A stretch of DNA of 64,000 nt, taken from assembly GCA_958295875.1 (NCBI GenBank), contig OY282379.1:2569046-2633045 (forward strand), written 5' to 3'. The translations under genes were made by a program, and so were the position numbers. The stretch is from an uncultured Pseudomonadales bacterium (GTDB taxonomy: Bacteria; Pseudomonadota; Gammaproteobacteria; Pseudomonadales; Azotimanducaceae). Below are positions 24,246 through 38,814 of this stretch, piece by piece; the first letter of the stretch is position 1; each line of letters starts with the position of its first letter. A model generated the notes under the pieces. The model was not told the origin of the DNA. It did not search any database and saw nothing but the letters and a program-made list of their open reading frames with translations.

Positions 24246-24539
24246 GCGTGTGCTCGGGCTCGGCCTCGCCATCTTCGTGTTCCGGGCACTGTTCCCTCGC
24301 GGCAGGACCGGCGCATGTGCGTCGCCTTGGGCACCACACACGTCGGCGAGATCGATGATTGTCCCTACGGTAGCTGGATGCGCACAGCAGCGTTCCAAAG
24401 CGAGGCCGGCCTGCTGCCTTGGCATGGCAGATGTCTTTGATTTGCGTGAGACATCCGCCCGGCGTGGCGTTTGGGCGGGAATTGGCCCGGTGGATGGCGC
24501 ACAGTTGGCACCCCGCAGCCCGACGCCGCCGGAAGACCG

Positions 24540-25607
24540 ATGCAGGCCAGCGACGCGCCGTACAAGGTGCTGTTCCAAGACCGGCGCCTCTTCGAGGAGA
24601 CCGTGCGGCTGGTCGCCCCGCGGCTGGCCGACGGGCTGGACTTCGACGCCGCCGCGTCGCTGGACAAGGAGCACCTGACGGCGCTGGCGCGCACCCGCGT
24701 GCAGGACAAGCTGCGGCGCGTCGAGCGCAAGTCGGGGAAGCTGGCGAACGGCCGCCGCCGCTACGTCCTGGCGCTGCTCGAGTTCCAGTCCGGCCACGAC
24801 GCGGACATGGCTTGGCGGATGCGGGACTACCTGCACCTGGTGGAGTCCGGCCTGCGCCAGTCGGGCACGGCGCAGGCGGAGGGGGAGGTGCCGGGGATGC
24901 TGTCGGTCGTGGTCCACAACGGCGAGCGGCCGTGGCGGGCGTCGGCGGAGTGCGCGGGCCCGCTGACCGGCGACGCTGAGCCGGCGCAGGTGCGGATGTA
25001 TGCTACGGTGGACTTGCAGGTGCTGGCGCGGGGCGCGGACGGCGCGGGCCGGCGGCTGGTTCCGGGCGGCTGCCTGGCGACCTTGGCGGAGTTGGAGTCG
25101 TCGCCGGCGGAGGCTTTGCCGAAGCTGCTGCTGGAGGCGTTCCGGCGCCACGCTGGGGCGGGTTCGTCCGAGTTCCGCCGCGGGCTGCACCTGCGGGTGG
25201 AGTCCGCGCTGGAGCGGCGCGGTGCGGCGGCGGGCCTGCCGCCGCTGGCAGACTTCGAGCGGGCGCTCACGGAGAGAGGAGGAGAGCGGATGACGGCGAT
25301 GTTGGACGCGACGCTGGCGCGATGGGAAGAATCGAAGGTCGCGCAGGGCGTGGAGCGCGGTTTGGCTCAGGGCATTGAGCGTGGCCGGGCACAGGGGGTC
25401 GAGCGTGGCCTAGCCCAAGGGCGCGTGGCCCTGCTTGGGCGGATGGCGGAGCGGCGCTTCGGCGCGGGCGTGGCGGGCCAAGTGACGGCGCTGCTGGCGG
25501 ATGAGACGGACCTGTCGCGCCTGGACGAGGCCGGCGAATGGCTGCTCGAGTGCGACACTGGCGAGGCATTGCTCTCGCGGCTCGCAGGGCGCCCGCCACG
25601 CGGCTGA
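24540..25607 (+). CDS. Rpn family recombination-promoting nuclease / putative transposase (YhgA-like), paralog type 2, copy A
   Basis: MQASDAPYKVLFQDRRLFEETVRLVAP, LALLEFQSGHDADMAWRMRDYL and an 8-aa AQG[VI]ERG[LR] repeat are followed by ALLGRMAERRFG...GEALLSRL (DUF4351-like). Confidence 0.8.
   Translation: MQASDAPYKVLFQDRRLFEETVRLVAPRLADGLDFDAAASLDKEHLTALARTRVQDKLRRVERKSGKLANGRRRYVLALLEFQSGHDADMAWRMRDYLHLVESGLRQSGTAQAEGEVPGMLSVVVHNGERPWRASAECAGPLTGDAEPAQVRMYATVDLQVLARGADGAGRRLVPGGCLATLAELESSPAEALPKLLLEAFRRHAGAGSSEFRRGLHLRVESALERRGAAAGLPPLADFERALTERGGERMTAMLDATLARWEESKVAQGVERGLAQGIERGRAQGVERGLAQGRVALLGRMAERRFGAGVAGQVTALLADETDLSRLDEAGEWLLECDTGEALLSRLAGRPPRG
25277..25292 (+). promoter_or_regulatory. 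Internal in-frame RBS plus ATG inside Rpn gene
   Basis: AGGAGG at 25277..25282, a 7-nt spacer, then ATG at 25290, in frame (codon 251). It would give a 105-aa C-terminal protein, MTAMLDATLARW.... Confidence 0.5.
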
Positions 25608-25707
25608 CGGCAAGCGCGATGGCCTGCGCCTGTGCATGGAGTCCGCGCTGAAGCGTTGGGGCTTGGCAGCGGGACCGCGGGCGCTCGCGGAGAGAGGAGG
25701 AGAGCGG

Positions 25708-26061
25708 ATGACGGCGATGTTGGACGCGACGCTGGCGCGGTGGAAAGAAGCGGAGGTCGCGCAGGGACGGGCGCAGGGCATGGAACGGGGCCTTGCACAG
25801 GGCATTGAGCGTGGCCGGGCGCAAGGCATGGAACAAGGCTTGGCGCGAGGCGTGGAACGGGGCCTAGCCCAAGGGCGGGTGGCCCTGCTTGGCCGGATGG
25901 CGGAGCGGCGCTTCGGCGCGGGCGTGGCGGGCCGTGTGACGGCGCTGTTGGCGGACGAGACGGACCTGCCGCGCCTGGATGAGGCCGGCGAATGGCTGCT
26001 CGAGTGCGACACCGGCGAGGCGCTGCTCGCGCGGCTCGCAGGGCGTCAGCCACACGGCTGA
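25708..26061 (+). CDS. Stand-alone Rpn C-terminal (DUF4351-like) module, 117 aa
   Basis: AGGAGG at 25695..25700, a 7-nt spacer, then ATG at 25708. MTAMLDATLARWKEAEVAQG... duplicates the last about 105 aa of 24540..25607 but has more 8-aa repeats. Confidence 0.5.
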   Translation: MTAMLDATLARWKEAEVAQGRAQGMERGLAQGIERGRAQGMEQGLARGVERGLAQGRVALLGRMAERRFGAGVAGRVTALLADETDLPRLDEAGEWLLECDTGEALLARLAGRQPHG

Positions 26062-26145
26062 CGGCGAGCGCCAAAGTAGAGCTGTTGGCGCTTCAGGTCC
26101 CGCTTCGGGGGATCCGAACACTCTGCATGAGTCTAAACGGGTGCC

Positions 26146-29769: not shown

Positions 29770-29859
29770 TCACTTCCTTCCCGTTTACGATACCGTGCGA
29801 CGTCACCCGCCAAAGCCCCTGTTCTGGTTCAGATAGATATGGCACTGCGCCAGCCGATG

Positions 29860-31043
29860 GCGGGGTGAGGTGGCGCTGGCGACGGGAACCCGCCGCCAGC
29901 GCCGGATCGGGTAGCCTCAGTGAATGCGAAGTCACTGGTGGAGACCCGAGCCATGCGAATCGAATCGATGCGGATCAGATCGTACCGCAGTTTCAGGGTG
30001 GACGACGCCGAACTGCCGGCCGAGGCCCGCGGGCGCCTGTCGGCGATCCGCCGGTTCGATGGGCTGCGCGCCGCCGGCTGCGCCGAGCGCGCCGCCTTGA
30101 GGGAGGTCGGCGTCAGCCGCCGCACCCTGTATCGGTGGAAGGCCGCGCTGGCCGCCGGCGGCCAGCGCGGCCTCGCGCCGAAGTCCACCCGACCGCGCCG
30201 CGTCCGCCGCCCGGCGCGCAAGCCGGGCGACGTGAAGGCGGTCATGGCCATGCGCCGCAAGCACCCGTTCATGGGCAAGGCGCCCATCCAGCGCATGCTC
30301 GAACGCCAAGGCCTGCGGCTGAGCGCGTCAACCGTCGGGCGCATCCTCTCGCGCGCCATCGCGGACGGGACCGTGCCCCCCGCCAGCCTCTGCGAAGGAC
30401 GGGCCAAGCCCAAGCGCCCCCGCAAGTTCAACGGCTGGGCGCGGCGCTGGAAATACGGCGACAAGGCCGAGCGCCCGGGCCAGCTCGTCCAGATCGACCA
30501 CATGACCGTCTCCCGCGACGGCAGCTCCATCAAGGAGTTCCGCGCCATCTGCCCCGTCAGCCGGTTCATGGTCGCCCGCGCCTTCTCCCGCGCCACCGCC
30601 GCCACCGCAGCGCGCTTCCTCGCCGTCGTCGCCGAAGCCCTCCCCGTGCCGCTGGAGTCCGTCCAGGTCGACGGCGGCAGCGAGTTCATGGCCGGCTTCG
30701 AGGACGCCTGCAGGAACCTCGGCGTCGCGCTGCGCGTCCTGCCGCCGCGACGGCCGCAGTGGAACGGCTGCGTCGAGCGCGCCAACCGCACCGCCCGCAT
30801 CGAGTTCTGGAACCTCCTCGACTGCGACCTCACCGTCGAGGCCGTCTCCGAGAGGCTCCTCAAGCGCGAGTTCTTCTACAACTACATCCGACCGCACTCC
30901 GCAATCGACTACCGATCCCCCAACGAGTACCTTGTCGCCCACGAGGCTGCCCAGCCTCAGTGCCAGATGTCATGAACCGGTTCAGCCCCTTGACCTCGCG
31001 GGAGCCTTGGCGCTAGGTTGCGGTCGGCCAATTGGACTCACAG
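29860..31043 (+). mobile_element. IS481-family insertion sequence (boundaries tentative)
   Basis: It carries a single transposase ORF. Weak terminal inverted similarity exists (GGTGAGG... at the left, ...ACTCACAG at the right). A possible 5-bp direct repeat CGATG lies at 29855..29859 and 31044..31048. Confidence 0.4.
29920..30975 (+). CDS. IS481-family transposase (DDE integrase core)
   Basis: HTH region: VGVSRRTLYRWKAALAAGGQRGLAPKSTRP. DDE core: LVQIDHMTV, VQVDGGSEFM, RPQWNGCVERANRT. Confidence 0.85.
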   Translation: MNAKSLVETRAMRIESMRIRSYRSFRVDDAELPAEARGRLSAIRRFDGLRAAGCAERAALREVGVSRRTLYRWKAALAAGGQRGLAPKSTRPRRVRRPARKPGDVKAVMAMRRKHPFMGKAPIQRMLERQGLRLSASTVGRILSRAIADGTVPPASLCEGRAKPKRPRKFNGWARRWKYGDKAERPGQLVQIDHMTVSRDGSSIKEFRAICPVSRFMVARAFSRATAATAARFLAVVAEALPVPLESVQVDGGSEFMAGFEDACRNLGVALRVLPPRRPQWNGCVERANRTARIEFWNLLDCDLTVEAVSERLLKREFFYNYIRPHSAIDYRSPNEYLVAHEAAQPQCQMS

Positions 31044-31045
31044 CG

Positions 31046-32392
31046 ATGCCAGATAGCCAGCTAGATTGGCGGAAGCTCCTCTGCTCGACGCGGCGGAAGG
31101 AGATCGCACGAAAACGACACTGCGGTCAAGCCGCATCCGCCGGCACCCACGTCTGCGCCGAAGAGATTGAGCACGATTACGACAGGATCCTTTCCTCGAC
31201 CTCAACGCGTCGGCTGGCTGACAAGACGCAACTCTTCCCTCCTGACACGAATCGCTCTATTAGTACCCGTTTAACGCACTCGCTCGAGGTCAGCAACTTA
31301 GCCCGCAGCATCGGCGTTCGGCTTGCCCATGATCATCGCCACGACGTGTTTGGCGAGCTTGCCGACAAGCTGCAAGCGGAACGAACGGTTCCCGCGTTGC
31401 TAGCTGCCGCGGGCCTTGCACACGACCTCGGCACTCCACCTTTCGGCCATCCAGGCGAAAAGGCCATTCGCCTGTGGTGCAAGACCCGCGGCATCAAACT
31501 CAAGGATTTTGCCGAGTTCGACAGCAATTGCCAGACGTTCCGCCTCCTGACGCGCCTTCAGATCCTTGACGGCAATTTCGGCCTAGACCTGACGTGCGCC
31601 ACGCTCGCCACGTCGCTCAAGTACCCAGCCTTCTCCAACGACCTAAGTGGCTTCAAGAAGTTCGGGATTTTTGAACGCGAGCGCAACATAGCTCACGAAG
31701 TATGGGATCAAACCGGCCTCGCCGAGGGGGTGCGGCACCCTTTGGCCTACATCGTGGAAGCATGCGACGACATTGCTTACTCCGTAATGGACGTCGAAGA
31801 CATCGTAAGAATGGGCTACGCATCCTGCAACAACGTAATGGATTTCCTTGCGCAAAGTTCAGATGCCAAGACTAAAGCCGTGAGGAAAAGAACCCTAAAT
31901 GAGTGTAAGGTGTTTGCAAGTAAGAAGAGCCAGCGGCATTTGGATGAGCAATCTATGCTGGTGTTTAGGACCATTTCCATTTCTGAGATGATAGAATCGA
32001 TTACTAGAACGTTCGTTTCCCATATCGATCAGATACTCAAGGGAGAAGTAGATGGCGAATACAAGCTCGTTCCAAAATCCGACGTTGCGGAACTCTGTTG
32101 CCGGCTTAAGAAGTTTGGTAGACGTAGAGGATTCGAGCATCGAGATATATGTCAGCGGGCGATGAAGGACAAGAAGCAGGTCAGAGAAACGATGGATTAC
32201 CTCTGGTGTGGCATCGCGAATCCGGATCGAGGTAGCGCTTATTCGCGCCTGCCTGAGATTGACCGTCGAGCGTACGAAGTGACCTCTCGTTCTTGGTCCG
32301 ACAAGTTGCACCTGCTATGCGACACCGTTGCGAGCATGACGAATAGCGAACTGATCTCTTTACGCGACGACCTCAAAGGCATTCTGCAGTAG
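31046..32392 (+). CDS. dGTPase-family HD-domain deoxynucleoside triphosphate triphosphohydrolase-like protein
   Basis: LDWRKLLCSTRRKE is a Dgt-type N-terminus. RLTHSLEVSNLARSIG and GLAHDLGTPPFGHPGE are HD motifs, and ACDDIAYSVMDVED is also present. The GC content is visibly lower than the flanks. Confidence 0.8.
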   Translation: MPDSQLDWRKLLCSTRRKEIARKRHCGQAASAGTHVCAEEIEHDYDRILSSTSTRRLADKTQLFPPDTNRSISTRLTHSLEVSNLARSIGVRLAHDHRHDVFGELADKLQAERTVPALLAAAGLAHDLGTPPFGHPGEKAIRLWCKTRGIKLKDFAEFDSNCQTFRLLTRLQILDGNFGLDLTCATLATSLKYPAFSNDLSGFKKFGIFERERNIAHEVWDQTGLAEGVRHPLAYIVEACDDIAYSVMDVEDIVRMGYASCNNVMDFLAQSSDAKTKAVRKRTLNECKVFASKKSQRHLDEQSMLVFRTISISEMIESITRTFVSHIDQILKGEVDGEYKLVPKSDVAELCCRLKKFGRRRGFEHRDICQRAMKDKKQVRETMDYLWCGIANPDRGSAYSRLPEIDRRAYEVTSRSWSDKLHLLCDTVASMTNSELISLRDDLKGILQ

Positions 32393-32419: not shown

Positions 32420-33343
32420 TCAGGAGATCTCGCCAAGAGAGTTGCCCAAAAGAAACACTAGTACGAGTACCACCGGCAAAATAGTCCATCTCCCCCAAAT
32501 GGCATCGCGCAAAACAAGCATTAGGGCGGAAGTAGAGAGTGCGAGTGATAGAGCAATTGCCCCAATTCGGACCCAAGCGCTTAACTCAGGAATGGACTGT
32601 AGGGCATCACTTTCACGACCGACCAAAACAGCAAACAAGACTCCGAGCAATGTAATGACGAGCGTAGAGAAGTAGACCGCTTGTGACCTAACATCGTCCA
32701 CTGCCTTTGCTACTTGTTTAGCGCGTTGCTCTACTTTCGTAACCCTTTCCCCGTATTGAGACAATGCGGACTCATGTGCGCCATGGGGAGCGACGCTTTC
32801 GATGTCCCGTGGGGGTAATGATTCAAAAGGCTCGCATTGAGAGGCGGTGTAAGGAGTGCTCTTTACGAAGTCGATCAGCGCAAGCTTATCGCCCCTCTTG
32901 AGCTTTACGGATCTTCTAGAGAGATTGTAAATGGGACACGCCAGCTTCCCGATGTATCCGGGGTCAACCTGCGCTGCCCCCACCCACAGCAGCCCCTTGT
33001 ATGCTAGCTTAACCTTGATGTTCCACCTTGCAATCATGAACCTAGGGATGCAGAGATGTTCTAGAGTCTCTATAACGACTACCTCGTAGGGTTCGATTTC
33101 GAAAGTGTCAGCGTCTTGCAGTTCCTCCTTTTGCAAACCGCGGAAGTAACGATCTCCAACCCGCATCTGGTAGCCAGCTGGCTCAAGGCTGTCCCTAGAG
33201 AAGGGATGTATCATGCAATGGCTGTCGACGTAGCATTCTATCCGATTGCTGAGCAGCACGCCGTATTCGGACGGATAGGGGTCATATTCTAAGGTACGGA
33301 GGTCGACCTTAGATACGCTATTCGGGCGGACTGCGGCCATCAT
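32420..33343 (-). CDS. dCTP deaminase / dUTPase-fold protein with C-terminal coiled-coil and three TM helices
   Basis: The Dcd-like core is LLSNRIECYV...IHPF...LEPAGYQMRVG...IEPYEVVVIETLE...VDPGYIGKLACPIYN...LKRGDKLALIDF. The C-terminal TM segments are AVYFSTLVITLLGVLFAVLVG, WVRIGAIALSLALSTSALMLVL and WTILPVVLVLVFLLG. Confidence 0.7.
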   Translation of the reverse strand: MMAAVRPNSVSKVDLRTLEYDPYPSEYGVLLSNRIECYVDSHCMIHPFSRDSLEPAGYQMRVGDRYFRGLQKEELQDADTFEIEPYEVVVIETLEHLCIPRFMIARWNIKVKLAYKGLLWVGAAQVDPGYIGKLACPIYNLSRRSVKLKRGDKLALIDFVKSTPYTASQCEPFESLPPRDIESVAPHGAHESALSQYGERVTKVEQRAKQVAKAVDDVRSQAVYFSTLVITLLGVLFAVLVGRESDALQSIPELSAWVRIGAIALSLALSTSALMLVLRDAIWGRWTILPVVLVLVFLLGNSLGEIS

Positions 33344-34441
33344 TCAGACTCCAGTTAGGCTCGTCGTTTGCAGCAGTGAACGGTCATGTCTGCGTGTGTT
33401 GTTAGCGTCAATGCTCGTGCGCGTATCGAAATCTGAACGTGGCACCAGCTTGGTGGGTGACGTTCCGACCCAATCGAATGTCCTCCCGATGCTCGCTTCA
33501 AACGAGGCGACAGTGACTTCCCACGACGGGGGCAGGGTAGTGGCGGCGGCCGTCTGATCAAAGTAGTCTACATGATTAAGCACTAGGTGGGTCGCGCCGT
33601 TGGCGTCAATAGCCTCCTTAACGATGGCTGGATCGAATCGTGCCACGCGGCGGACGCACTTGGTCACCGATGAAAGCTCGGATAGGTGCGCGCGACCACA
33701 ATTGATGCCGATAGTGCGCCAGTCGGTCTCGAATGGCAGCGGGCCGGAGTTGCCGCTCACTCGGATCGGGAAGGCCCGCGCAACGAGGACAATGCAGTCA
33801 ACCTCAACAGGGCTAAGTCCGGCTTCGGCGACGAACGCGGCGGCAGTGGTATTGCGGCTCGTAACGTAGGGGTAATGGCTCGATAGAAGGTTGGAGAGCC
33901 CGAAGCCTTGTGTGCCCTCGATTAGAACACGCTCTCCGCGATCCAAGGCGGCCCGGATCAGCGGGCGGGTGGGCCGAACGAAACGGGCGATATAGCTATC
34001 GTCGGAAGCCCAATGCACGGCGTTGGAACGTGAGACTCGATCCATTACTGCTGCGCCCGTGCCGCTAGCGGTCGATCCGATCCGAGCCCTAAGCGCTGAG
34101 CTTCTCTCCTTGCTCTTATGCTCGTCGGTGATGACCATCGCACGTGGATCTATCACCAGCCTGTCTCGAGGGAGGTCGATGCGCTCCACGTCTTGCCGCA
34201 GCGCTTCGGCGTCAATGTAGGAGCCGGGGCCGAGCACGCATAGGGTATCTTGAAGGAGCGCGGCTGTTGGGAGGTGGCGGAAAACATGCCGGCGACCATC
34301 GCTGCCGTAGGCCGTATGGCCAGAGTTTGAGCCGCCCACGCGGATAACAATCGTGGCCTGTTGGTGCTGCGCCAAGAACAGCGCGACCTTGCCCTTGCCC
34401 TCAGAGCCAAACTGGGCGCCGGCTACCACGGTTACGGGCAT
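33344..34441 (-). CDS. Adenylosuccinate synthetase (PurA) family protein, divergent, PurZ-like active-site substitutions
   Basis: By-eye alignment to E. coli PurA gives these matches: FGSEGKGK vs PurA GDEGKGK; GGSNSGHT vs GGHNAGHT; IGSTASGTG vs IGTTGRGIG; EGTQGFGL...YPYVTS vs EGAQG...YPYVTS. ATG at 34441 overlaps the upstream stop by 10 nt. Its stop abuts the next ATG. Confidence 0.75.
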   Translation of the reverse strand: MPVTVVAGAQFGSEGKGKVALFLAQHQQATIVIRVGGSNSGHTAYGSDGRRHVFRHLPTAALLQDTLCVLGPGSYIDAEALRQDVERIDLPRDRLVIDPRAMVITDEHKSKERSSALRARIGSTASGTGAAVMDRVSRSNAVHWASDDSYIARFVRPTRPLIRAALDRGERVLIEGTQGFGLSNLLSSHYPYVTSRNTTAAAFVAEAGLSPVEVDCIVLVARAFPIRVSGNSGPLPFETDWRTIGINCGRAHLSELSSVTKCVRRVARFDPAIVKEAIDANGATHLVLNHVDYFDQTAAATTLPPSWEVTVASFEASIGRTFDWVGTSPTKLVPRSDFDTRTSIDANNTRRHDRSLLQTTSLTGV

Positions 34442-36552
34442 TGGCCGTCTCTGCGAAGATGTGTCGTCACGATCTCGTCGCAGACACAAAGAGCGTGATG
34501 TTCTCCCTCGTTAGGGAGGATTTGATCCGCTAGCTGCCGCAGCTTTTCGACCCCCTGCTCAACATCATGGTGGCTTGTGTCGTCGAAGTCGGCATGAGGC
34601 CCGTTTCGCTGAACAAACCGCTGTCGTCGGACATCGGCGGACACATCAAGATGGACATGGGTGAACGCTGGGCCATAGCGCTCTAGCCAGAAAGCGCGGT
34701 CTTCCGGCCATCGCAGGCCATCCACAACGAACATCTGCCTGCTGTCGCCGTAACGGGCAAGCAGCTGGCGGTTGAGCCATCGTTGCCCTAACTCAACGTG
34801 GATACTCTGGCCGACCTCTTGGAGCGTCTGCCTAGTAGTGCCCCTGCCTTGCCTCACTGCCTCGTCTGCCACCACTTGGCTATAGCGACCATAAGTGAGG
34901 CCCCGCTTCTCCAACCCATGTGCGACGGTTGTCTTGCCCGAAGAAATCGGGCCACTGACGCCGACTACGAGCCGGCCGTGCCACTGCGTCTCCCGGCCCT
35001 CGTCGGAAACTCTCGGAATGATCAAGTAGTCTTCATCCTCGTTCCCTAGCGCCTCAAATCGGCCTGACCAGAAGAACAGCCCAACAATGGCGGACGTGAT
35101 GGCATCGAGCTCGTCGTGTTTGGGGTTGGCGTCCGGTGAAACCGAGCGTCCTTCAAGGCCAAAGCGGCGGAGACCCTCCTTCAATTGCACAAGGCTCGCC
35201 CGTTTTCGCGGGATGTCCATGATGTCTTGGGCGGCGCCGGGATAACTCTCTATCACCGGGATGCCCAAAGCCCGGATTTTGGCCGCTAAGCCCATGCCAC
35301 GATCAGTGAGTTTTTGCATGCTGGGGATCAAGCAGGGGTACACGTTGATGCCCCGGCGTTTCAACATACGCTCACACACCCGCATGATGCCAAATTCGGC
35401 GCGACCGGGGTCGTCGTCATCAACACGGATGCGGCCTCGCGGCAGCGAAAGTGGCGAGTCGATCGACACGAGCTGGGGTTTGATGGCGGCTATGGCCTCT
35501 AGCATCTCCGCGTCCGTTCTAACCATGCGCGTTTCGACGCGGCGGCCCTTGAGCTCGCACCATCCGGATGGTCGGTGCTCCGAGCCGGTGAGGTCGATGC
35601 CGATCACAGTAATGGCATCACCACGAATGTAGTCCACTAAGTCCTCGTAGGTCGCCTTGGGGCCAGTTCGGCCTCGGAACTGCGGCACGTCAATGACGTT
35701 GATGCCTTTGGCGCCACGCTTGAAACATACCGACGCCCTAGCAGACGCGAATGGAGCGGGCGGATTAAGTCGCTGATTCTCGCCGAGGCGCCGGATGGTC
35801 TCGTCGAGGATGGCCTTCATGCCTTCCACATCTGAATGGTTGTATTGGACCAAATCGTGGCCAGCGCGTAAGTCGCCATTCCTGTACTCGTACCAGAGCC
35901 GCACGGCATCCGCACCAGTGGCATCGCTGATTTGCTCGGGACGTTCAAAGCGCAACTCGCGCTCGATCTTCTTTTGGCCGCCCTTCAATTGCGCCCGCCG
36001 GGCGAAGTAGCGTAGGTCAACATGTGCGCGAGGCAGGTTTGCGCCGCTTTCTAGCCTCGCCAGAAACTTCAAATCGAAAGCTGTGCCGTTAAACGTAACG
36101 AGACACTTGGCGTCGTTCAACAGATCATGCCAGACGCCTGCGGACGTATCTGGGAACCAACAGGCGTAGCGCTTGCCCCTCGATAGGCCGATCAGCGTGA
36201 TTTCGTCGTAGTAGAGGCTCAGGCCGGTCGTCTCGATGTCCAAGAACACGGTGTCGTCTGGGAAGGTTGTGGCTATTCTGTAGTGCTCTCGAGATGGGAG
36301 CCTAGCGGCGAAGTAGTCCGCGTCCTTGTCGGAGAGCGCATATCGGGAAGCTTCGATGGCAGCCAAGCAGTCGTCGCGAGCGGGAGCGAACAGATCGGCT
36401 GGCGGCCGGCGGGCTTCTTCGAGATCAGACCAAGTTAGGATGCCCTCTCCCCACAAGCGCCTCTCCGTGCGCAGGCCGATCCTAGGGAGGTGGATGAACG
36501 TATGTTCGAGCGGGCAGCGGTTCAACTCCACGTCATCCTCGTCTTGCCCCAA
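34432..36552 (-). CDS. Three-domain fusion: YprB-like RNase H-fold 3-5 exonuclease, DUF429-like RNase H-fold domain, and P-loop nucleotide kinase-like domain
   Basis: Exonuclease domain: VFLDIETTGLSLYYDEITLIG, LVTFNGTAFDLKFL and YNHSDVEGM (DEDD-like). DUF429-like domain: VIGIDLTGSE...HDELDAITSAIVG. Kinase-like domain: VVGVSGPISSGKTTVA...VVDGLRWPED. The start is TTG at 36552. Confidence 0.75.
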   Translation of the reverse strand: MGQDEDDVELNRCPLEHTFIHLPRIGLRTERRLWGEGILTWSDLEEARRPPADLFAPARDDCLAAIEASRYALSDKDADYFAARLPSREHYRIATTFPDDTVFLDIETTGLSLYYDEITLIGLSRGKRYACWFPDTSAGVWHDLLNDAKCLVTFNGTAFDLKFLARLESGANLPRAHVDLRYFARRAQLKGGQKKIERELRFERPEQISDATGADAVRLWYEYRNGDLRAGHDLVQYNHSDVEGMKAILDETIRRLGENQRLNPPAPFASARASVCFKRGAKGINVIDVPQFRGRTGPKATYEDLVDYIRGDAITVIGIDLTGSEHRPSGWCELKGRRVETRMVRTDAEMLEAIAAIKPQLVSIDSPLSLPRGRIRVDDDDPGRAEFGIMRVCERMLKRRGINVYPCLIPSMQKLTDRGMGLAAKIRALGIPVIESYPGAAQDIMDIPRKRASLVQLKEGLRRFGLEGRSVSPDANPKHDELDAITSAIVGLFFWSGRFEALGNEDEDYLIIPRVSDEGRETQWHGRLVVGVSGPISSGKTTVAHGLEKRGLTYGRYSQVVADEAVRQGRGTTRQTLQEVGQSIHVELGQRWLNRQLLARYGDSRQMFVVDGLRWPEDRAFWLERYGPAFTHVHLDVSADVRRQRFVQRNGPHADFDDTSHHDVEQGVEKLRQLADQILPNEGEHHALCVCDEIVTTHLRRDGQCP

Positions 36553-36637: not shown

Positions 36638-36727
36638 TGGCGGAGAGGCAGGGATTCGAACCCTGGGTGCCCAAAGGACACACCTGATTTCGAGTCAGGC
36701 CCGTTCGACCAACTCCGGCACCTCTCC
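36638..36727 (-). tRNA. tRNA-Ser (anticodon CGA), CCA encoded
   Basis: A 90-nt cloverleaf was folded by hand. Acceptor: GGAGAGG/CCTCTCC. Anticodon arm: CCTGA-CTCGAAA-TCAGG. Long variable arm: GTGTCC-TTT-GGGCAC. T arm: CAGGG-TTCGAAT-CCCTG. Confidence 0.9.
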
Positions 36728-36967
36728 GAGGCGCATTCTGCGCCAAGCTGCCACATGAGCGCAACGAGCCAGCGATGGGGGGCGGGGGCGAAGCGGGGTG
36801 GCGTCCGTGGGCGTGGGTATGGATCACGGAGGCCGGTCCGCTGCCTTGGCATGGCAGATGTCTTTGATTTGCGTGAGACATCCGCCCGGCGTGGCGTTTG
36901 AGCGGGAATTGGCCCGCCGGATGGCGCACAGTTGGCACCCCCGCAACCCCGACGACGCCCGAACCCG

Positions 36968-38119
36968 ATGCAGGCCAGCGACGCGCCGTACAAGGTGCTG
37001 TTCCAAGACCGGCGCCTCTTCGAGGAGACCGTGCGGCTCGTCGCCCCGCGGCTGGCCGACGGGCTGGACTTCGGCGCCGCCGCGTCGCTGGACAAGGAGC
37101 ACCTGACGGCGCTGTCGCGCACCCGCGTGCAGGACAAGCTGCGGCGCGTCGAGCGCAAGTCGGGGAAACTGGCGAACGGCCGCCGCCGCTACGTCCTGGC
37201 GCTGCTCGAGTTCCAGTCCGGCCACGACGCGGACATGGCTTGGCGGATGCGGGACTACCTGCACCTGGTGGAGTCCGGGCTGCGGCAGTCGGGCACGGCG
37301 CGGGCGGAGGGGGAGGTGCCGGGGATGCTGTCGGTCGTGGTCCACAACGGCGAGCGGCCGTGGCGGGCGTCGGCGGAGTGCGCCGGCCCGCTGACCGGCG
37401 ACGCTGAGCCGGCGCAGGTGCGGATGTATGCTACGGTGGACTTGCAGGTGCTGGCGCGGGGCGCGGACGGCGCGGGCCGGCGGCTGGTTCCGGGCGGCTG
37501 CCTGGCGACCTTGGCGGAGTTGGAGTCGTCGCCGGCGGAGGCCTTGCCGAAGCTGCTGCTGGAGGCGTTCCGGCGCCACGCTGGGGCGGGTTCGTCGGAG
37601 TTCCGCCGCGGGCTGCACCTGCGGGTGGAGTCCGCGCTGGAGCGGCGCGGTGTGGCGGCGGGCCTGCCGTCGCTGGCAGATTTCGAGCGGGCGCTCACGG
37701 AGAGAGGAGGAGAGCGGATGACGGCGATGTTGGACGCGACGCTGGCGCGGTGGAAAGAAGCAGAGGTCGCGCAGGGCGTGGAGCGGGGCTTGGCTCAGGG
37801 CATTGAGCGCGGCCGGGCGCAAGGCATGGAACAAGGCTTGGAGCGCGGTTTGGCCCAAGGCGTGGAGCGCGGTTTGGCTCAGGGCATTGAGCGTGGTCGG
37901 GCACAGGGCGTTGAGCGTGGCCTAGCCCAAGGGCGCGTGGCCCTGCTTGGGCGGATGGCCGAGCGGCGCTTCGGCGCGGGCGTGGCGGGCCGTGTGGCGG
38001 CGCTGTTGGCGGACGAGACGGACCTGTCGCGCTTGGACGAGGCCGGCGAATGGCTGCTCGAGTGCGAGACTGGCGAAGCGCTGCTCGTGCGGCTCCGAGG
38101 GCGTCCGCCCCAAGGCTGA
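36968..38119 (+). CDS. Rpn family recombination-promoting nuclease / putative transposase (YhgA-like), paralog type 2, copy B
   Basis: It is near-identical to 24540..25607 over the first 250 codons, then carries a longer AQG[VIM]E[RQ]G[LR] repeat tract before the DUF4351-like end. Confidence 0.8.
   Translation: MQASDAPYKVLFQDRRLFEETVRLVAPRLADGLDFGAAASLDKEHLTALSRTRVQDKLRRVERKSGKLANGRRRYVLALLEFQSGHDADMAWRMRDYLHLVESGLRQSGTARAEGEVPGMLSVVVHNGERPWRASAECAGPLTGDAEPAQVRMYATVDLQVLARGADGAGRRLVPGGCLATLAELESSPAEALPKLLLEAFRRHAGAGSSEFRRGLHLRVESALERRGVAAGLPSLADFERALTERGGERMTAMLDATLARWKEAEVAQGVERGLAQGIERGRAQGMEQGLERGLAQGVERGLAQGIERGRAQGVERGLAQGRVALLGRMAERRFGAGVAGRVAALLADETDLSRLDEAGEWLLECETGEALLVRLRGRPPQG
37705..37720 (+). 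promoter_or_regulatory. Internal in-frame RBS plus ATG inside Rpn gene
   Basis: AGGAGG at 37705..37710, a 7-nt spacer, then ATG at 37718, in frame (codon 251). Confidence 0.5.
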
Positions 38120-38215
38120 CGGCAAGCGCCATGGCCTGCGCCTGGAGTCCGCGCTGAAGCGTGGGGCTTGGCAGCGGGGCTACCGCGGGCGCTCGCGGAG
38201 AGAGGAGAAGAGCGG

Positions 38216-38509
38216 ATGACGGCGATGTTGGACGCGACGCTGGCGCGATGGAAAGAAGCGGAGGTCGCGCGGGGCGTGGAGCGTGGCTTGGCCCAGGGCG
38301 TTGAGCGTGGCCTAGCCCAAGGGCGCGTGGCCCTGCTTGGCCGGATGGCGGAGCGGCGCTTCGGCGCGGGCGTGGCGGGCCGTGTGACGGCGCTGTTGGC
38401 GGACGAGACGGACCTGTCGCGCTTGGACGAGGCCGGCGAGTGGCTGCTTGAGTGCGACACTGGCGAAGCGCTGCTTGCGCGGCTCGGAGGGCCTCCACCG
38501 TGCGGCTGA
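38216..38509 (+). CDS. Stand-alone Rpn C-terminal (DUF4351-like) module, 97 aa
   Basis: AGGAGA at 38203..38208, a 7-nt spacer, then ATG at 38216. It encodes MTAMLDATLARWKEAEVARG...LLGRMAERRFG...GEALLARL. Confidence 0.5.
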   Translation: MTAMLDATLARWKEAEVARGVERGLAQGVERGLAQGRVALLGRMAERRFGAGVAGRVTALLADETDLSRLDEAGEWLLECDTGEALLARLGGPPPCG

Positions 38510-38814
38510 CGGTGAGCGCTGTGGGCTGCGCTTGCGGGTGGAGCCCTTGCGACGAGAACCATGTCCCTGGGCGAGCGTCGGCGCTGGACAGCACCCCCCG
38601 CTTGACAAACCGTCGAACCCTCAAGACCCCTACGTCAAAGCCCACGGCCGCTGCCCGTCACAGCGGCCCCAGCTGACAAAAACGGTCGCACCTTGCCGCT
38701 GCAAAGAACCGCGCCAATCGAGCGCAACCATCCCACCCCGTGGTTTGACTCGCGGTGCCAAACGTCGCCTAATGCCCGCATTGAGCCACGAGCCGCGAGC
38801 TAGGGAGCGGGCGC

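Follow-up and report, generated by a model that had tools for sequence, protein, structure and literature searches.

A serine-type PurZ-like relative of adenylosuccinate synthetase in a mobile three-gene bacterial cassette

In the adenylosuccinate synthetase (PurA) family, the alignment column of the catalytic base Asp13 is occupied by Ser in 100% of 147 phage PurZ proteins and by Asp in 99% of PurA proteins (PMC12884076), and this Ser, as Ser14 of phiVC8 PurZ, serves as the operational definition of PurZ (bioRxiv 2025.10.22.683976). PurZ begins the synthesis of DNA containing 2-aminoadenine (Z-DNA). PurZ chemistry and natural Z-DNA have been described for phages only (PMC13128860). We describe here a related gene, called B, located at 33344..34441 on the minus strand of a 64,000-nucleotide stretch of DNA (the window; positions 2,569,046 to 2,633,045 of contig OY282379.1, GenBank assembly GCA_958295875.1) from an uncultured Pseudomonadales bacterium of the Azotimanducaceae. 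Its product is a Ser-type, PurZ-like, short adenylosuccinate synthetase homologue of 365 amino acids (aa), encoded between gene A, for a nuclease-kinase, and gene C, for a membrane protein of the DCD fold. The A-B-C cassette is apparently undescribed so far.

The closest enzyme to B is PurZ0, the GTP-dependent enzyme of actinophages, whose genomes carry the dUTPase-fold gene dutZ in 100% of cases (98 genomes), with dmtZ co-occurring (PMC12884076). The closest analogue at the level of the system is the phage Z-cluster, composed of an HD-domain DatZ, a MazZ or DutZ, and PurZ. The PurZ of phages phiVC8 (structure 6FM1) and S-2L (7ODX) is ATP/dATP-dependent, and its adenine donor pocket has Asn or Gln for Asp333 and a stacking Phe (PMC8342488). 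Archaeal PurA, represented by P. horikoshii PH0438 (2D7U, 5K7X), is the best overall match of B. Nucleotide-depletion defences, with an anti-phage dGTPase and a dCTP deaminase, were reportedly described by Tal et al. in 2022. In the accessible part of its description (PMC12967843), the Kongming system is a defence acting through a base-modified deoxypurine nucleotide and nucleotide kinases, in which phage-derived enzymes make dITP and NAD+ is depleted.

Gene B compared with PurZ0, PurZ and PurA

The reading frame of B runs from an ATG at 34441 to a TGA. The Pfam family Adenylsucc_synt (PF00709) matched its product at 165.7 bits (E value of 1.8e-48; gathering score of 27). The two highest-scoring NCBIfam models were archaeal PurA (PRK04293, 244.7 bits for a cut-off of 368) and PurZ (NF038379, 239.3 bits for a cut-off of 300), and B also stayed under the cut-offs of the PurA models TIGR00184 (184.4 versus 395.6 bits) and PRK01117 (157.9 versus 402 bits). 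The closest solved structures were P. horikoshii PurA (170.8 bits) and PurZ0 of Gordonia phage Archimedes (7VF6; PDB entry, PMC12884076; 164.8 bits), and the PurZ structures of phiVC8 and S-2L scored 119 and 96.7 bits, respectively. An AlphaFold2 (AF2) model of B, with a predicted local distance difference test (pLDDT) score of 86, superimposed on solved structures of adenylosuccinate synthetase, PurZ and PurZ0 with template modelling (TM) scores of 0.76-0.82, reaching 0.82 with 5K7X, 0.81 with 7VF6 and 0.79 with 6FM1.

The ligand contacts of S-2L PurZ (PMC8342488) and the classical residues of the E. coli enzyme were mapped onto 120 homologues of B. Numbers follow the E. coli literature and PDB entries, which run one lower than the translated gene, so that K17, R144 and R304 of the translation are the residues changed in the PDB mutant entries K16Q, R143L and R303L. 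In GGHNAGHT, Asn38 is consequently the N, and His41 the second H. A reading of the sequence alone had proposed that Ser replaces both the catalytic Asp13 and the catalytic His41. The loss of Asp13 was confirmed by HMMER and by two MAFFT alignments, which agree in placing FGS13EGKGK of B opposite WGD13EGKG of PurA, FGSEAKG of PurZ0 and FGSTGKG of PurZ. The column is Ser in 112 and Gly in 8 of the 120 close homologues, and Ser in 134 of the 143 representatives of the 50%-identity clusters nearest B. The loss of His41 was an error of numbering: His41 falls opposite His42 of B, within GGS-N39-SG-H42-T, where N39 and H42 are each present in 120/120 homologues. The catalytic acid is thus retained, and the change concerns the catalytic base alone. 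The same column holds His52 of S-2L PurZ, which contacts the triphosphate (PMC8342488). The Ser that had been noticed, S38, sits at E. coli His37, where P. horikoshii PurA has Thr and both PurZ and PurZ0 have Pro, and it is therefore without diagnostic value. The other motifs quoted in that reading (IGSTASGTG, EGTQG...YPYVTS, RVSGNSG, SSVTKCVRRVARFD and NHVD) are all present.

The key residues of B are S13 (E. coli D13), K16, N39, H42 (H41), S123 (T129), R138 (R143), Q178 (Q224), R227-V228, the insertion G230-N231-S232-G233, T260, R264-R265 and the donor-pocket motif N289-H290-V291-D292, in which D292 corresponds to D333 of E. coli and both H290 and D292 are found in 120/120 homologues. The P-loop GxxGKG of the superfamily is satisfied by G12-S-E-G-K16-G. 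N39, H42, Q178, R138 and R264 are invariant or nearly so across the 120 homologues, and in E. coli numbering the family retains K16, N38, H41, R143, Q224, T239, R272-V273 and R305, together with the tip of the aspartate-binding loop, (T/S)(S/T)VT. This set of residues argues for an active enzyme that still uses aspartate, and B is predicted to be catalytically competent within a Ser-type (PurZ-like) lineage. An inactive pseudo-enzyme was considered and rejected because the catalytic and ligand-binding residues other than Asp13 are all invariant.

Mapping of the contacts showed that D13 to S, W11 to F or Y (QFGS instead of QWGD) and T129 to S (120/120) are common to the B family, PurZ and PurZ0 and are not found in E. 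coli or archaeal PurA. In S-2L PurZ, the stretch Y21-S23 flanks the 2-amino group of deoxyguanosine monophosphate (dGMP) (PMC8342488). Further changes of the PurZ/PurZ0 type were G298 to T or S (T273 in S-2L), R304 to V or I, and the loss of conservation at R303, which contacts the 2'-OH of inosine monophosphate (IMP) in PurA (PMC8342488). In B itself, Cys262 and Val263 stand at R303 and R304 of the TTGRRRR loop, the residues of PurA that contact the 2'-OH of IMP and aspartate, which reduces RRRR to xVRR; in the family the R303 position is variable. The B family also carries a two-residue insertion, RV(S/A)G-NSG, which is identical in PurZ0 (RVAGNSG) and lies directly after the Val that approaches or contacts C2' (PMC8342488). 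The use of Asp-to-Ser as the hallmark of PurZ, named in the sequence-only reading, is indeed the criterion of the field (PMC12884076; bioRxiv 2025.10.22.683976), and B shares with PurZ and PurZ0 these traits beyond it. Asp333 (NHVD, 120/120) is common to the B family, PurA and PurZ0 and is not found in PurZ; since it is retained, GTP is the predicted phosphate donor of B.

Comparison with the individual families gave likenesses and differences in each case. B resembles PurZ0 in its short archaeal-type fold, in Ser at Asp13, QFGS and Ser at T129, in the NSG insertion, in the hydrophobic residue at R304 and in Asp333. A dUTPase-superfamily gene is always present with PurZ0 (PMC12884076), and C is a near-constant partner of B, but the profile of C is nearer to that of Dcd and C carries transmembrane helices. 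B differs from PurZ0 in that the two are only 34-37% identical and fall in separate clades, in that B has Ser rather than Pro at His37 and Val or Ala rather than Cys beside T239, and in that B is chromosomal and bacterial, with a nuclease-kinase partner, no DpoZ, and a membrane-anchored DCD-like protein rather than DutZ/DmtZ; no homologue of NDT/DmtZ was seen with the cassette. B and PurZ have in common the Ser in the Asp13 column and a base pocket of much the same make-up (G-S, N, T, Q, V), whereas identity is 27-33%, the NCBIfam PurZ score is 239 for a required 300, and the Asn or Gln by which PurZ accepts adenine at Asp333 is Asp in B. Archaeal PurA shares with B the short architecture and a GTP-type TxxD/NxxD motif and differs in having Asp13, W11 and T129, an RVGAG that lacks the insertion, and all four Arg of RRRR.

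An exhaustive search of 1.84 billion cluster representatives returned 637 proteins at E <= 1e-30, and the Ser and the NSG insertion were found in almost all of the best 150 of these 637. In neighbour-joining (NJ) trees, which are rough and have short internal branches, 177 of 200 bootstraps united the Ser-type sequences in a clade to the exclusion of PurA from P. horikoshii and E. coli, and 198 of 200 kept PurZ0 (Archimedes), PurZ and a distinct group of kinase-fused proteins outside the clade that holds B. A hand-picked core set was strictly monophyletic in only 15 of 200 bootstraps, an extra representative (P0125) joining it. Among bacterial and metagenomic sequences, over 100 proteins share 52-87% identity with B, the 87% being reached in a Pseudomonadales metagenome-assembled genome (L001), and the closest homologue in GenBank phage genomes is at most 41% identical. 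These alignments and trees place B in a new lineage of the PurZ-like superclade, outside both PurZ and PurZ0. The view that B is PurZ proper accordingly had to be given up, on its score, its Asp333, its position in the trees and the occurrence of the cassette in 0/80 viral loci. The view that it is no housekeeping purA was supported by sequence and context, in that B is below all NCBIfam PurA equivalog cut-offs, does not cluster inside canonical PurA and belongs to a mobile three-gene cassette found in unrelated contexts; no second purA was found in the 64-kb window.

A short PurA-like gene, about 35% identical to B, was also observed on Rhizobium leguminosarum plasmids (hits H42-H49), where it overlaps or abuts folE (GTP cyclohydrolase I). 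This arrangement hints at another guanine-nucleotide pathway that employs the same enzyme family.

Partner genes, conservation and mobility of the cassette

Gene A (34432..36552, minus strand) encodes a protein of 706 aa with three domains (Pfam RNase_H_2, DUF429 and AAA_33/18/17), and its last 10 nt are shared with the beginning of B (ATGCCCGTAA). The ATG of C immediately follows the stop codon of B on its 3' side, and the junction sequences indicate that A, B and C are translationally coupled. The coupling of B to an exonuclease-kinase fusion, proposed earlier from the letters of the window, is thus borne out by the overlap and by the Pfam matches. Gene A has at least 2790 homologues; the 120 matches listed cover 82-99% of the query, and RNase_H_2 was recorded in all of them, with DUF429 and kinase-type Pfam matches in some only.

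The first domain of A (35803..36270, minus strand) is a DEDDy 3'-5' exonuclease similar to YprB and PolB-exo (PF13482 at 7.5e-27), in which D105, E107, N155, D160, Y237 and D241 are at least 90% conserved among 38 homologues. The second domain (34993..35655, minus strand) is DUF429 (PF04250), the best-conserved portion of A, which is predicted to be a RuvC-like nuclease of the RNase H fold: its AF2 model has a pLDDT of 83 and its top Foldseek matches are RuvC resolvases (7XHJ, E value of 1.5e-5, target TM score of 0.64). Apparent mentions of DUF429 in one publication proved to be DUF4291 (PMC12522546). The third domain (34483..34977, minus strand) resembles P-loop nucleoside monophosphate (NMP) kinases (AAA_33, AAA_18, AAA_17 and CoaE matches), has adenylate kinase 1 as its best PDB match and conserves the motifs GPISSGKTT (GxxxxGKTT) and DGLR and the lid arginines R642 and R645. 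Comparison with the defence models of PADLOC-DB v2.0.0 (2023) gave only partial domain matches for A, to PDC-S44 and to the dCTPase model, positions 154-320 of which match the kinase-like domain (1.5e-8).

Gene C (32420..33343, minus strand) encodes 307 aa comprising an N-terminal domain of the DCD/dUTPase fold (about 32849-33256), a linker and three predicted transmembrane helices (about 32444-32686), with hydrophobic segments at residues 220, 258 and 280. It matched the DCD family PF22769 with an E value of 1.2e-14 and scored 60.6 bits with TIGR02274, for a cut-off of 92.8; its best PDB matches were short archaeal entries named 'dCTP deaminase' (9LN0 and 8Y1W). The E. coli Dcd residues S111, R115 and E138, which we take to be its catalytic residues, are replaced by K, Y and P, respectively, in C. 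P137 is conserved in at least 90% of the C homologues, and VDPGxxG, R106 and N108 are also kept. Transmembrane helices were found in essentially every C, as a one-helix and a three-helix type. Comparison of the C profile by hhalign gave 95.5% for E. coli Dcd and 90% for the Archimedes dUTPase gp55, with no match to gp53. Orthology of C with phage DutZ was considered and is not supported by this comparison, in which C is closer to Dcd.

The order A-B-C was constant in the homologues found in databases, in 80 metagenome loci (40-57% identity to B) and in look-ups that started from C, and it held down to 40% identity of B and over a locus GC content of 29-66%. In the 49 metagenome loci with sufficient upstream flank, DUF429 was present in 39, the kinase in 38 and the exonuclease in 33, and a DCD-like gene was present in 45 of the 57 loci with enough downstream flank. 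The composition of the cassette varies around this core. Variants of A of 920-1000 aa carry a PolX-like HHH_8 and PHP module in place of the DEDDy exonuclease. The PHP domain of PolX enzymes is an exonuclease; if this applies here, the swap is a non-homologous replacement that keeps the activity. At least six loci have a deoxynucleoside kinase beside B or C, in four loci (L008, L085, L092 and L047) C gives way to, or is joined by, an AAA+ protein of 700-840 aa, some loci have two DCD-like genes and others consist of B and C only. An extended form of the cassette (L175/L176, 6001-12488) contains, in this order, a DCD-like gene, a PHP-domain variant of A (974 aa), B, a second DCD-like gene and a deoxynucleoside kinase.

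Fusions were also found. One protein joins B to C (P0121), and the kinase is fused to B in about ten representative clusters and on a plasmid of Burkholderia thailandensis. The kinase-fused Ser-type homologues (P0183, P0192-P0194, P0205, P0216, P0221, P0230, P0249 and P0262) are 515-571 aa long, have an N-terminal P-loop kinase and form a lineage separate from that of B. On the B. thailandensis plasmid (L010, NZ_CP141811.1, 6431-8774), the kinase-PurZ-like fusion is followed by a DUF7002 protein, with transposase, UvrD-helicase and PD-(D/E)XK genes as neighbours. This pair probably represents another conflict system, of two genes, that again combines a kinase with a PurZ-like protein.

The cassette is horizontally mobile, as seen from its lower GC content, its association with tRNA-Ser, insertion sequence (IS) and Rpn-like elements, its unrelated contexts and its patchy spread. 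The GC content is 0.595 for A, 0.607 for B, 0.516 for C and 0.55 for the neighbouring gene D, as compared with about 0.68 in the flanks, which agrees with the low-GC island seen from the sequence alone. In one genome (L177; GCA_040260895.1, JBDQPB010000097.1, 3290-7457), the cassette, composed in this order of an A without a kinase match, B, C and a fragment of a deoxynucleoside kinase, interrupts the conserved cluster thrS-infC-rpmI-rplT-pheST between infC and rpmI; elsewhere it is flanked by unrelated genes. The neighbours at individual loci include McrBC and DruA, a DUF499/methylase locus and a PIN/Phd toxin-antitoxin pair, and the 134 flanking open reading frames (ORFs) of 27 loci include four prokaryotic Argonautes (pAgo), components of type I and type II restriction-modification and MADS genes.

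Phage genes for structural proteins, for replication or for DpoZ were absent from the surroundings of the cassette, both in the window and at the other inspected loci, and neither A nor C was found in any of 80 IMG/VR viral loci with a relative of B. Three IMG/VR contigs (L095-L097; for example UViG_3300028840_002691, 105 kb) carry B-like genes that are 51-55% identical to B, without A or C. They have no recognisable datZ or mazZ, and the neighbours are methyltransferases, an oxidoreductase and unknowns; these contigs could be phage-borne relatives or misclassified cellular DNA.

In the window, gene D (31046..32392, plus strand), divergent from the cassette, encodes an HD-domain dGTP triphosphohydrolase (dGTPase; 246.5 bits with TIGR01353 for a cut-off of 152; PADLOC dGTPase at 1.5e-65). 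Its start was placed according to a gene call of 448 aa in the sister contig L002. The gene is present in L001-L004 and absent from L005-L008 and from all 80 metagenome loci; a core role for the dGTPase was rejected, its occurrence being confined to the closest relatives of the cassette, and D is an accessory gene or a mere neighbour. An IS insertion of 1,163 bp (29821-30983) with an integrase/transposase-like ORF of 351 aa (29920-30975) is missing from L002, which is about 99% identical and comes from the same sample (ERZ19489113). Its end lies 62 nt before the probable start codon (ATG) of D, and the insertion may therefore alter expression of the dGTPase. On the other side, a tRNA-Ser(CGA) gene (36638..36727, minus strand; ARAGORN), 86 nt upstream of A, forms one edge of the lower-GC segment in the GC profile. 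Two direct copies of an Rpn-like gene (24402-26086 and 36829-38534, 12.4 kb apart), 91-99% identical over blocks of 113-300 nt and with a weak or faint Pfam match to Transposase_31 (PF04754), bracket the cassette, the tRNA-Ser, the dGTPase, the IS and genes for a glutathione S-transferase (GST) and a flavin adenine dinucleotide (FAD) monooxygenase. Within each copy, the C-terminal ERGLAQG-repeat region is partly duplicated in tandem.

Possible functions of the cassette

The explanation that we tentatively favour, at less than even confidence, is that A-B-C is a conflict system, most probably anti-phage, which would convert dGMP into N6-succino-2-amino-dAMP (dSMP). By analogy with PurZ0, B would catalyse the reaction of dGMP, aspartate and GTP to dSMP, phosphorylating the O6 of dGMP with GTP as do PurZ and PurZ0 with their donors, and the PurB of the host could turn dSMP into dZMP. 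We favour a machine that funnels deoxyguanosine because the genes linked to B handle deoxyguanosine compounds or release deoxynucleoside monophosphates (dNMPs): the dGTPase would take dGTP to dG, the deoxynucleoside kinase deoxynucleosides to dNMPs, and the exonuclease and RuvC-like nuclease DNA to dNMPs, next to an NMP-kinase-like domain.

In such a scheme, the nucleases of A would first free dNMPs from DNA, or, alternatively, the dGTPase and a kinase would lead from dGTP through dG to dGMP. B would then irreversibly divert dGMP to the succino/2-aminoadenine branch, and the kinase domain would phosphorylate the modified nucleotide. The infecting phage would be starved of dG nucleotides, or its DNA would be poisoned with nucleotides of the Z pathway, while C would tether the complex at the membrane. 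The signature, the conserved catalytic residues, the conserved operon, the fusions, the patchy, mobile distribution and the absence from viral contigs are observations; the substrates, the product, the defence role, the order of the steps and the role of C are inferred. The wider idea that bacterial immunity has taken over the Z-DNA chemistry of phages, leading from dGMP freed in the course of an infection through N6-succino-2-amino-dAMP to Z nucleotides that act as a poison, a sink or a second messenger, is rather doubtful.

The described defences offer partial parallels. As in the nucleotide-depletion defences, the target would be the dNTPs available to the phage, D matches the PADLOC dGTPase and the kinase-like domain of A matches part of the dCTPase model; those defences, however, are single genes for dNTP hydrolysis or deamination, whereas the present locus has a ligase-type, base-modifying core with nucleases and a membrane protein. 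The likeness to Kongming lies in the base-modified nucleotide and the nucleotide kinases, and the enzymes and the effector are different; the accessible part of the Kongming description (PMC12967843) has no PurA-family protein and nothing related in sequence to the cassette proteins. The phage Z-cluster is paralleled by an HD phosphohydrolase, here the dGTPase, and by a protein with a dNTP-pyrophosphatase fold, analogous to DatZ and MazZ, respectively, but the HD protein of the cassette is a full-length Dgt-type dGTPase outside the core, and the context is not that of a phage. We found no publication linking a PurA-family protein to a defence system, which is weak evidence as the coverage of the literature was incomplete, and none bringing together adenylosuccinate and cyclic oligonucleotide-based antiphage signalling systems (CBASS) in the full-text literature search. 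PurA-like genes have been seen beside a family of DarT-like ADP-ribosyltransferases, and no functional explanation was offered (PMC12522546).

Several observations weigh against the conversion of dGMP by an anti-phage system. The global fold fails to separate archaeal PurA from PurZ0 (TM scores of 0.82 and 0.81, respectively). One residue of the dGMP pocket is PurA-like, being V or A in the B family where PurZ and PurZ0 have a Cys (Cys204), and B has Ser at the position of Ala50 in the base pocket of S-2L. C is without the canonical DCD/dUTPase catalytic residues, has near-universal transmembrane helices and is substituted by an AAA+ protein in some loci; it fits an effector better than an enzyme of the pathway. 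Neither B nor C matches a PADLOC model, and most neighbours of the cassette are ordinary metabolic genes, the signal of defence neighbours being modest and, with no background control, suggestive. Finally, because host PurB would cleave dSMP, the logic of depletion or poisoning is speculative.

The main rival takes up the nature of C. It holds that B and the kinase of A make a succinylated purine (deoxy)nucleotide only during infection, that the DCD/dUTPase-fold domain of C senses it without acting as an enzyme, and that the transmembrane helices of C thereupon make the membrane collapse (abortive infection); in other loci, the AAA+ protein or the DUF7002 partner would serve as the effector instead. 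We consider it unlikely. The loss of S111, R115 and E138 from C while its pocket is conserved (R106, N108 and VDPGxxG), the constancy of the transmembrane helices, the exchange of the third gene for an AAA+ protein at four loci and the pairing of distant kinase-PurZ-like fusions with DUF7002 all speak for it, as do the PurA-like genes found in 60% of the neighbourhoods of the DarT-like family (PMC12522546) and the precedent of dITP as a base-modified nucleotide signal in the accessible part of the Kongming description (PMC12967843). On the other hand, the B-C and kinase-B fusions point to a physical complex or to consecutive enzymes, some loci have two DCD-like genes, and PurB would degrade the signal. 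We also know of no signalling system with a sensor of the dUTPase fold. The data fit both depletion or poisoning and signalling and cannot separate the two.

A role in DNA repair or sanitation of the nucleotide pool, in which the nucleases would excise ends and the kinase and B would recycle (possibly damaged) guanine nucleotides with no part in conflict, appears very improbable. The set of domains in A (3'-5' exonuclease, RuvC-like nuclease and P-loop kinase) does resemble end-processing and repair enzymes, there are variants with a PolX-like HHH_8 and PHP module, and the metabolic character of most neighbours would suit such a role. Yet it would leave the membrane-anchored partner unexplained, and it is opposed by the patchy distribution, the host-atypical GC content, the insertion into a ribosomal-protein operon and the adjoining tRNA and IS, as well as by the pAgo, restriction-modification and McrBC genes that adjoin the cassette in several loci.

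Biosynthesis of a Z genome for a mobile element (the cassette being a remnant or cargo of a prophage, satellite or other element that replaces adenine by 2-aminoadenine in its own DNA), with C as the counterpart of DutZ/MazZ, D of DatZ and B of PurZ0, is very improbable. A formal parallel to the phage Z-cluster exists: a dUTPase-fold dutZ occurs in every PurZ0 genome (PMC12884076), the HD-domain DatZ of S-2L adjoins purZ, and three IMG/VR contigs carry B-like genes. These viral-contig genes, however, have no recognisable Z-cluster neighbours, the cassette of the window and of the inspected loci has no structural, replication or DpoZ genes around it, A or C occurs in none of the 80 viral loci, D is missing from most cassettes, the profile of C is nearer to E. 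coli Dcd than to gp55 and does not match gp53, and natural dZ-DNA has so far been reported in phages only (PMC13128860).

We give hardly any credence to B being an ordinary, horizontally acquired archaeal-type PurA that converts IMP to adenylosuccinate, for although its best matches in sequence, structure and NCBIfam include the P. horikoshii or archaeal PurA and the GTP-type Asp333 is kept, Asp13, found in 99% of the PurA clade (PMC12884076), is Ser, every PurA equivalog cut-off is missed, RRRR is reduced to xVRR, the gene lies in an obligate operon with a nuclease-kinase and a DCD-transmembrane protein, and P. horikoshii PurA falls outside the Ser-type clade in 177 of 200 bootstraps.

Meaning for the PurZ-like superclade

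The change of Asp13 to Ser, which is used for predicting Z genomes, defines a much larger superclade, as seen in the 134 of 143 cluster representatives nearest B, and one large branch of Ser-type proteins is a bacterial chromosomal operon that was present in none of the 80 viral contigs sampled. If B does not make dSMP, the Ser signature would be insufficient for calling PurZ, which would affect the annotation of thousands of predicted Z-phages.

If B does make dSMP, bacteria would own an entry enzyme of the Z pathway that is linked with nucleases, kinases and a membrane protein. The 2-aminoadenine pathway would have its first use outside viruses, prediction of Z genomes from Ser14 would also pick up systems that are not Z, and GTP-dependent PurZ-like enzymes would become available for synthetic Z-DNA. 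The cassette would then be a candidate for a new anti-phage mechanism or for a new nucleotide signal; in the latter case, a membrane effector of the dUTPase fold would respond to second messengers of a new nucleotide class.

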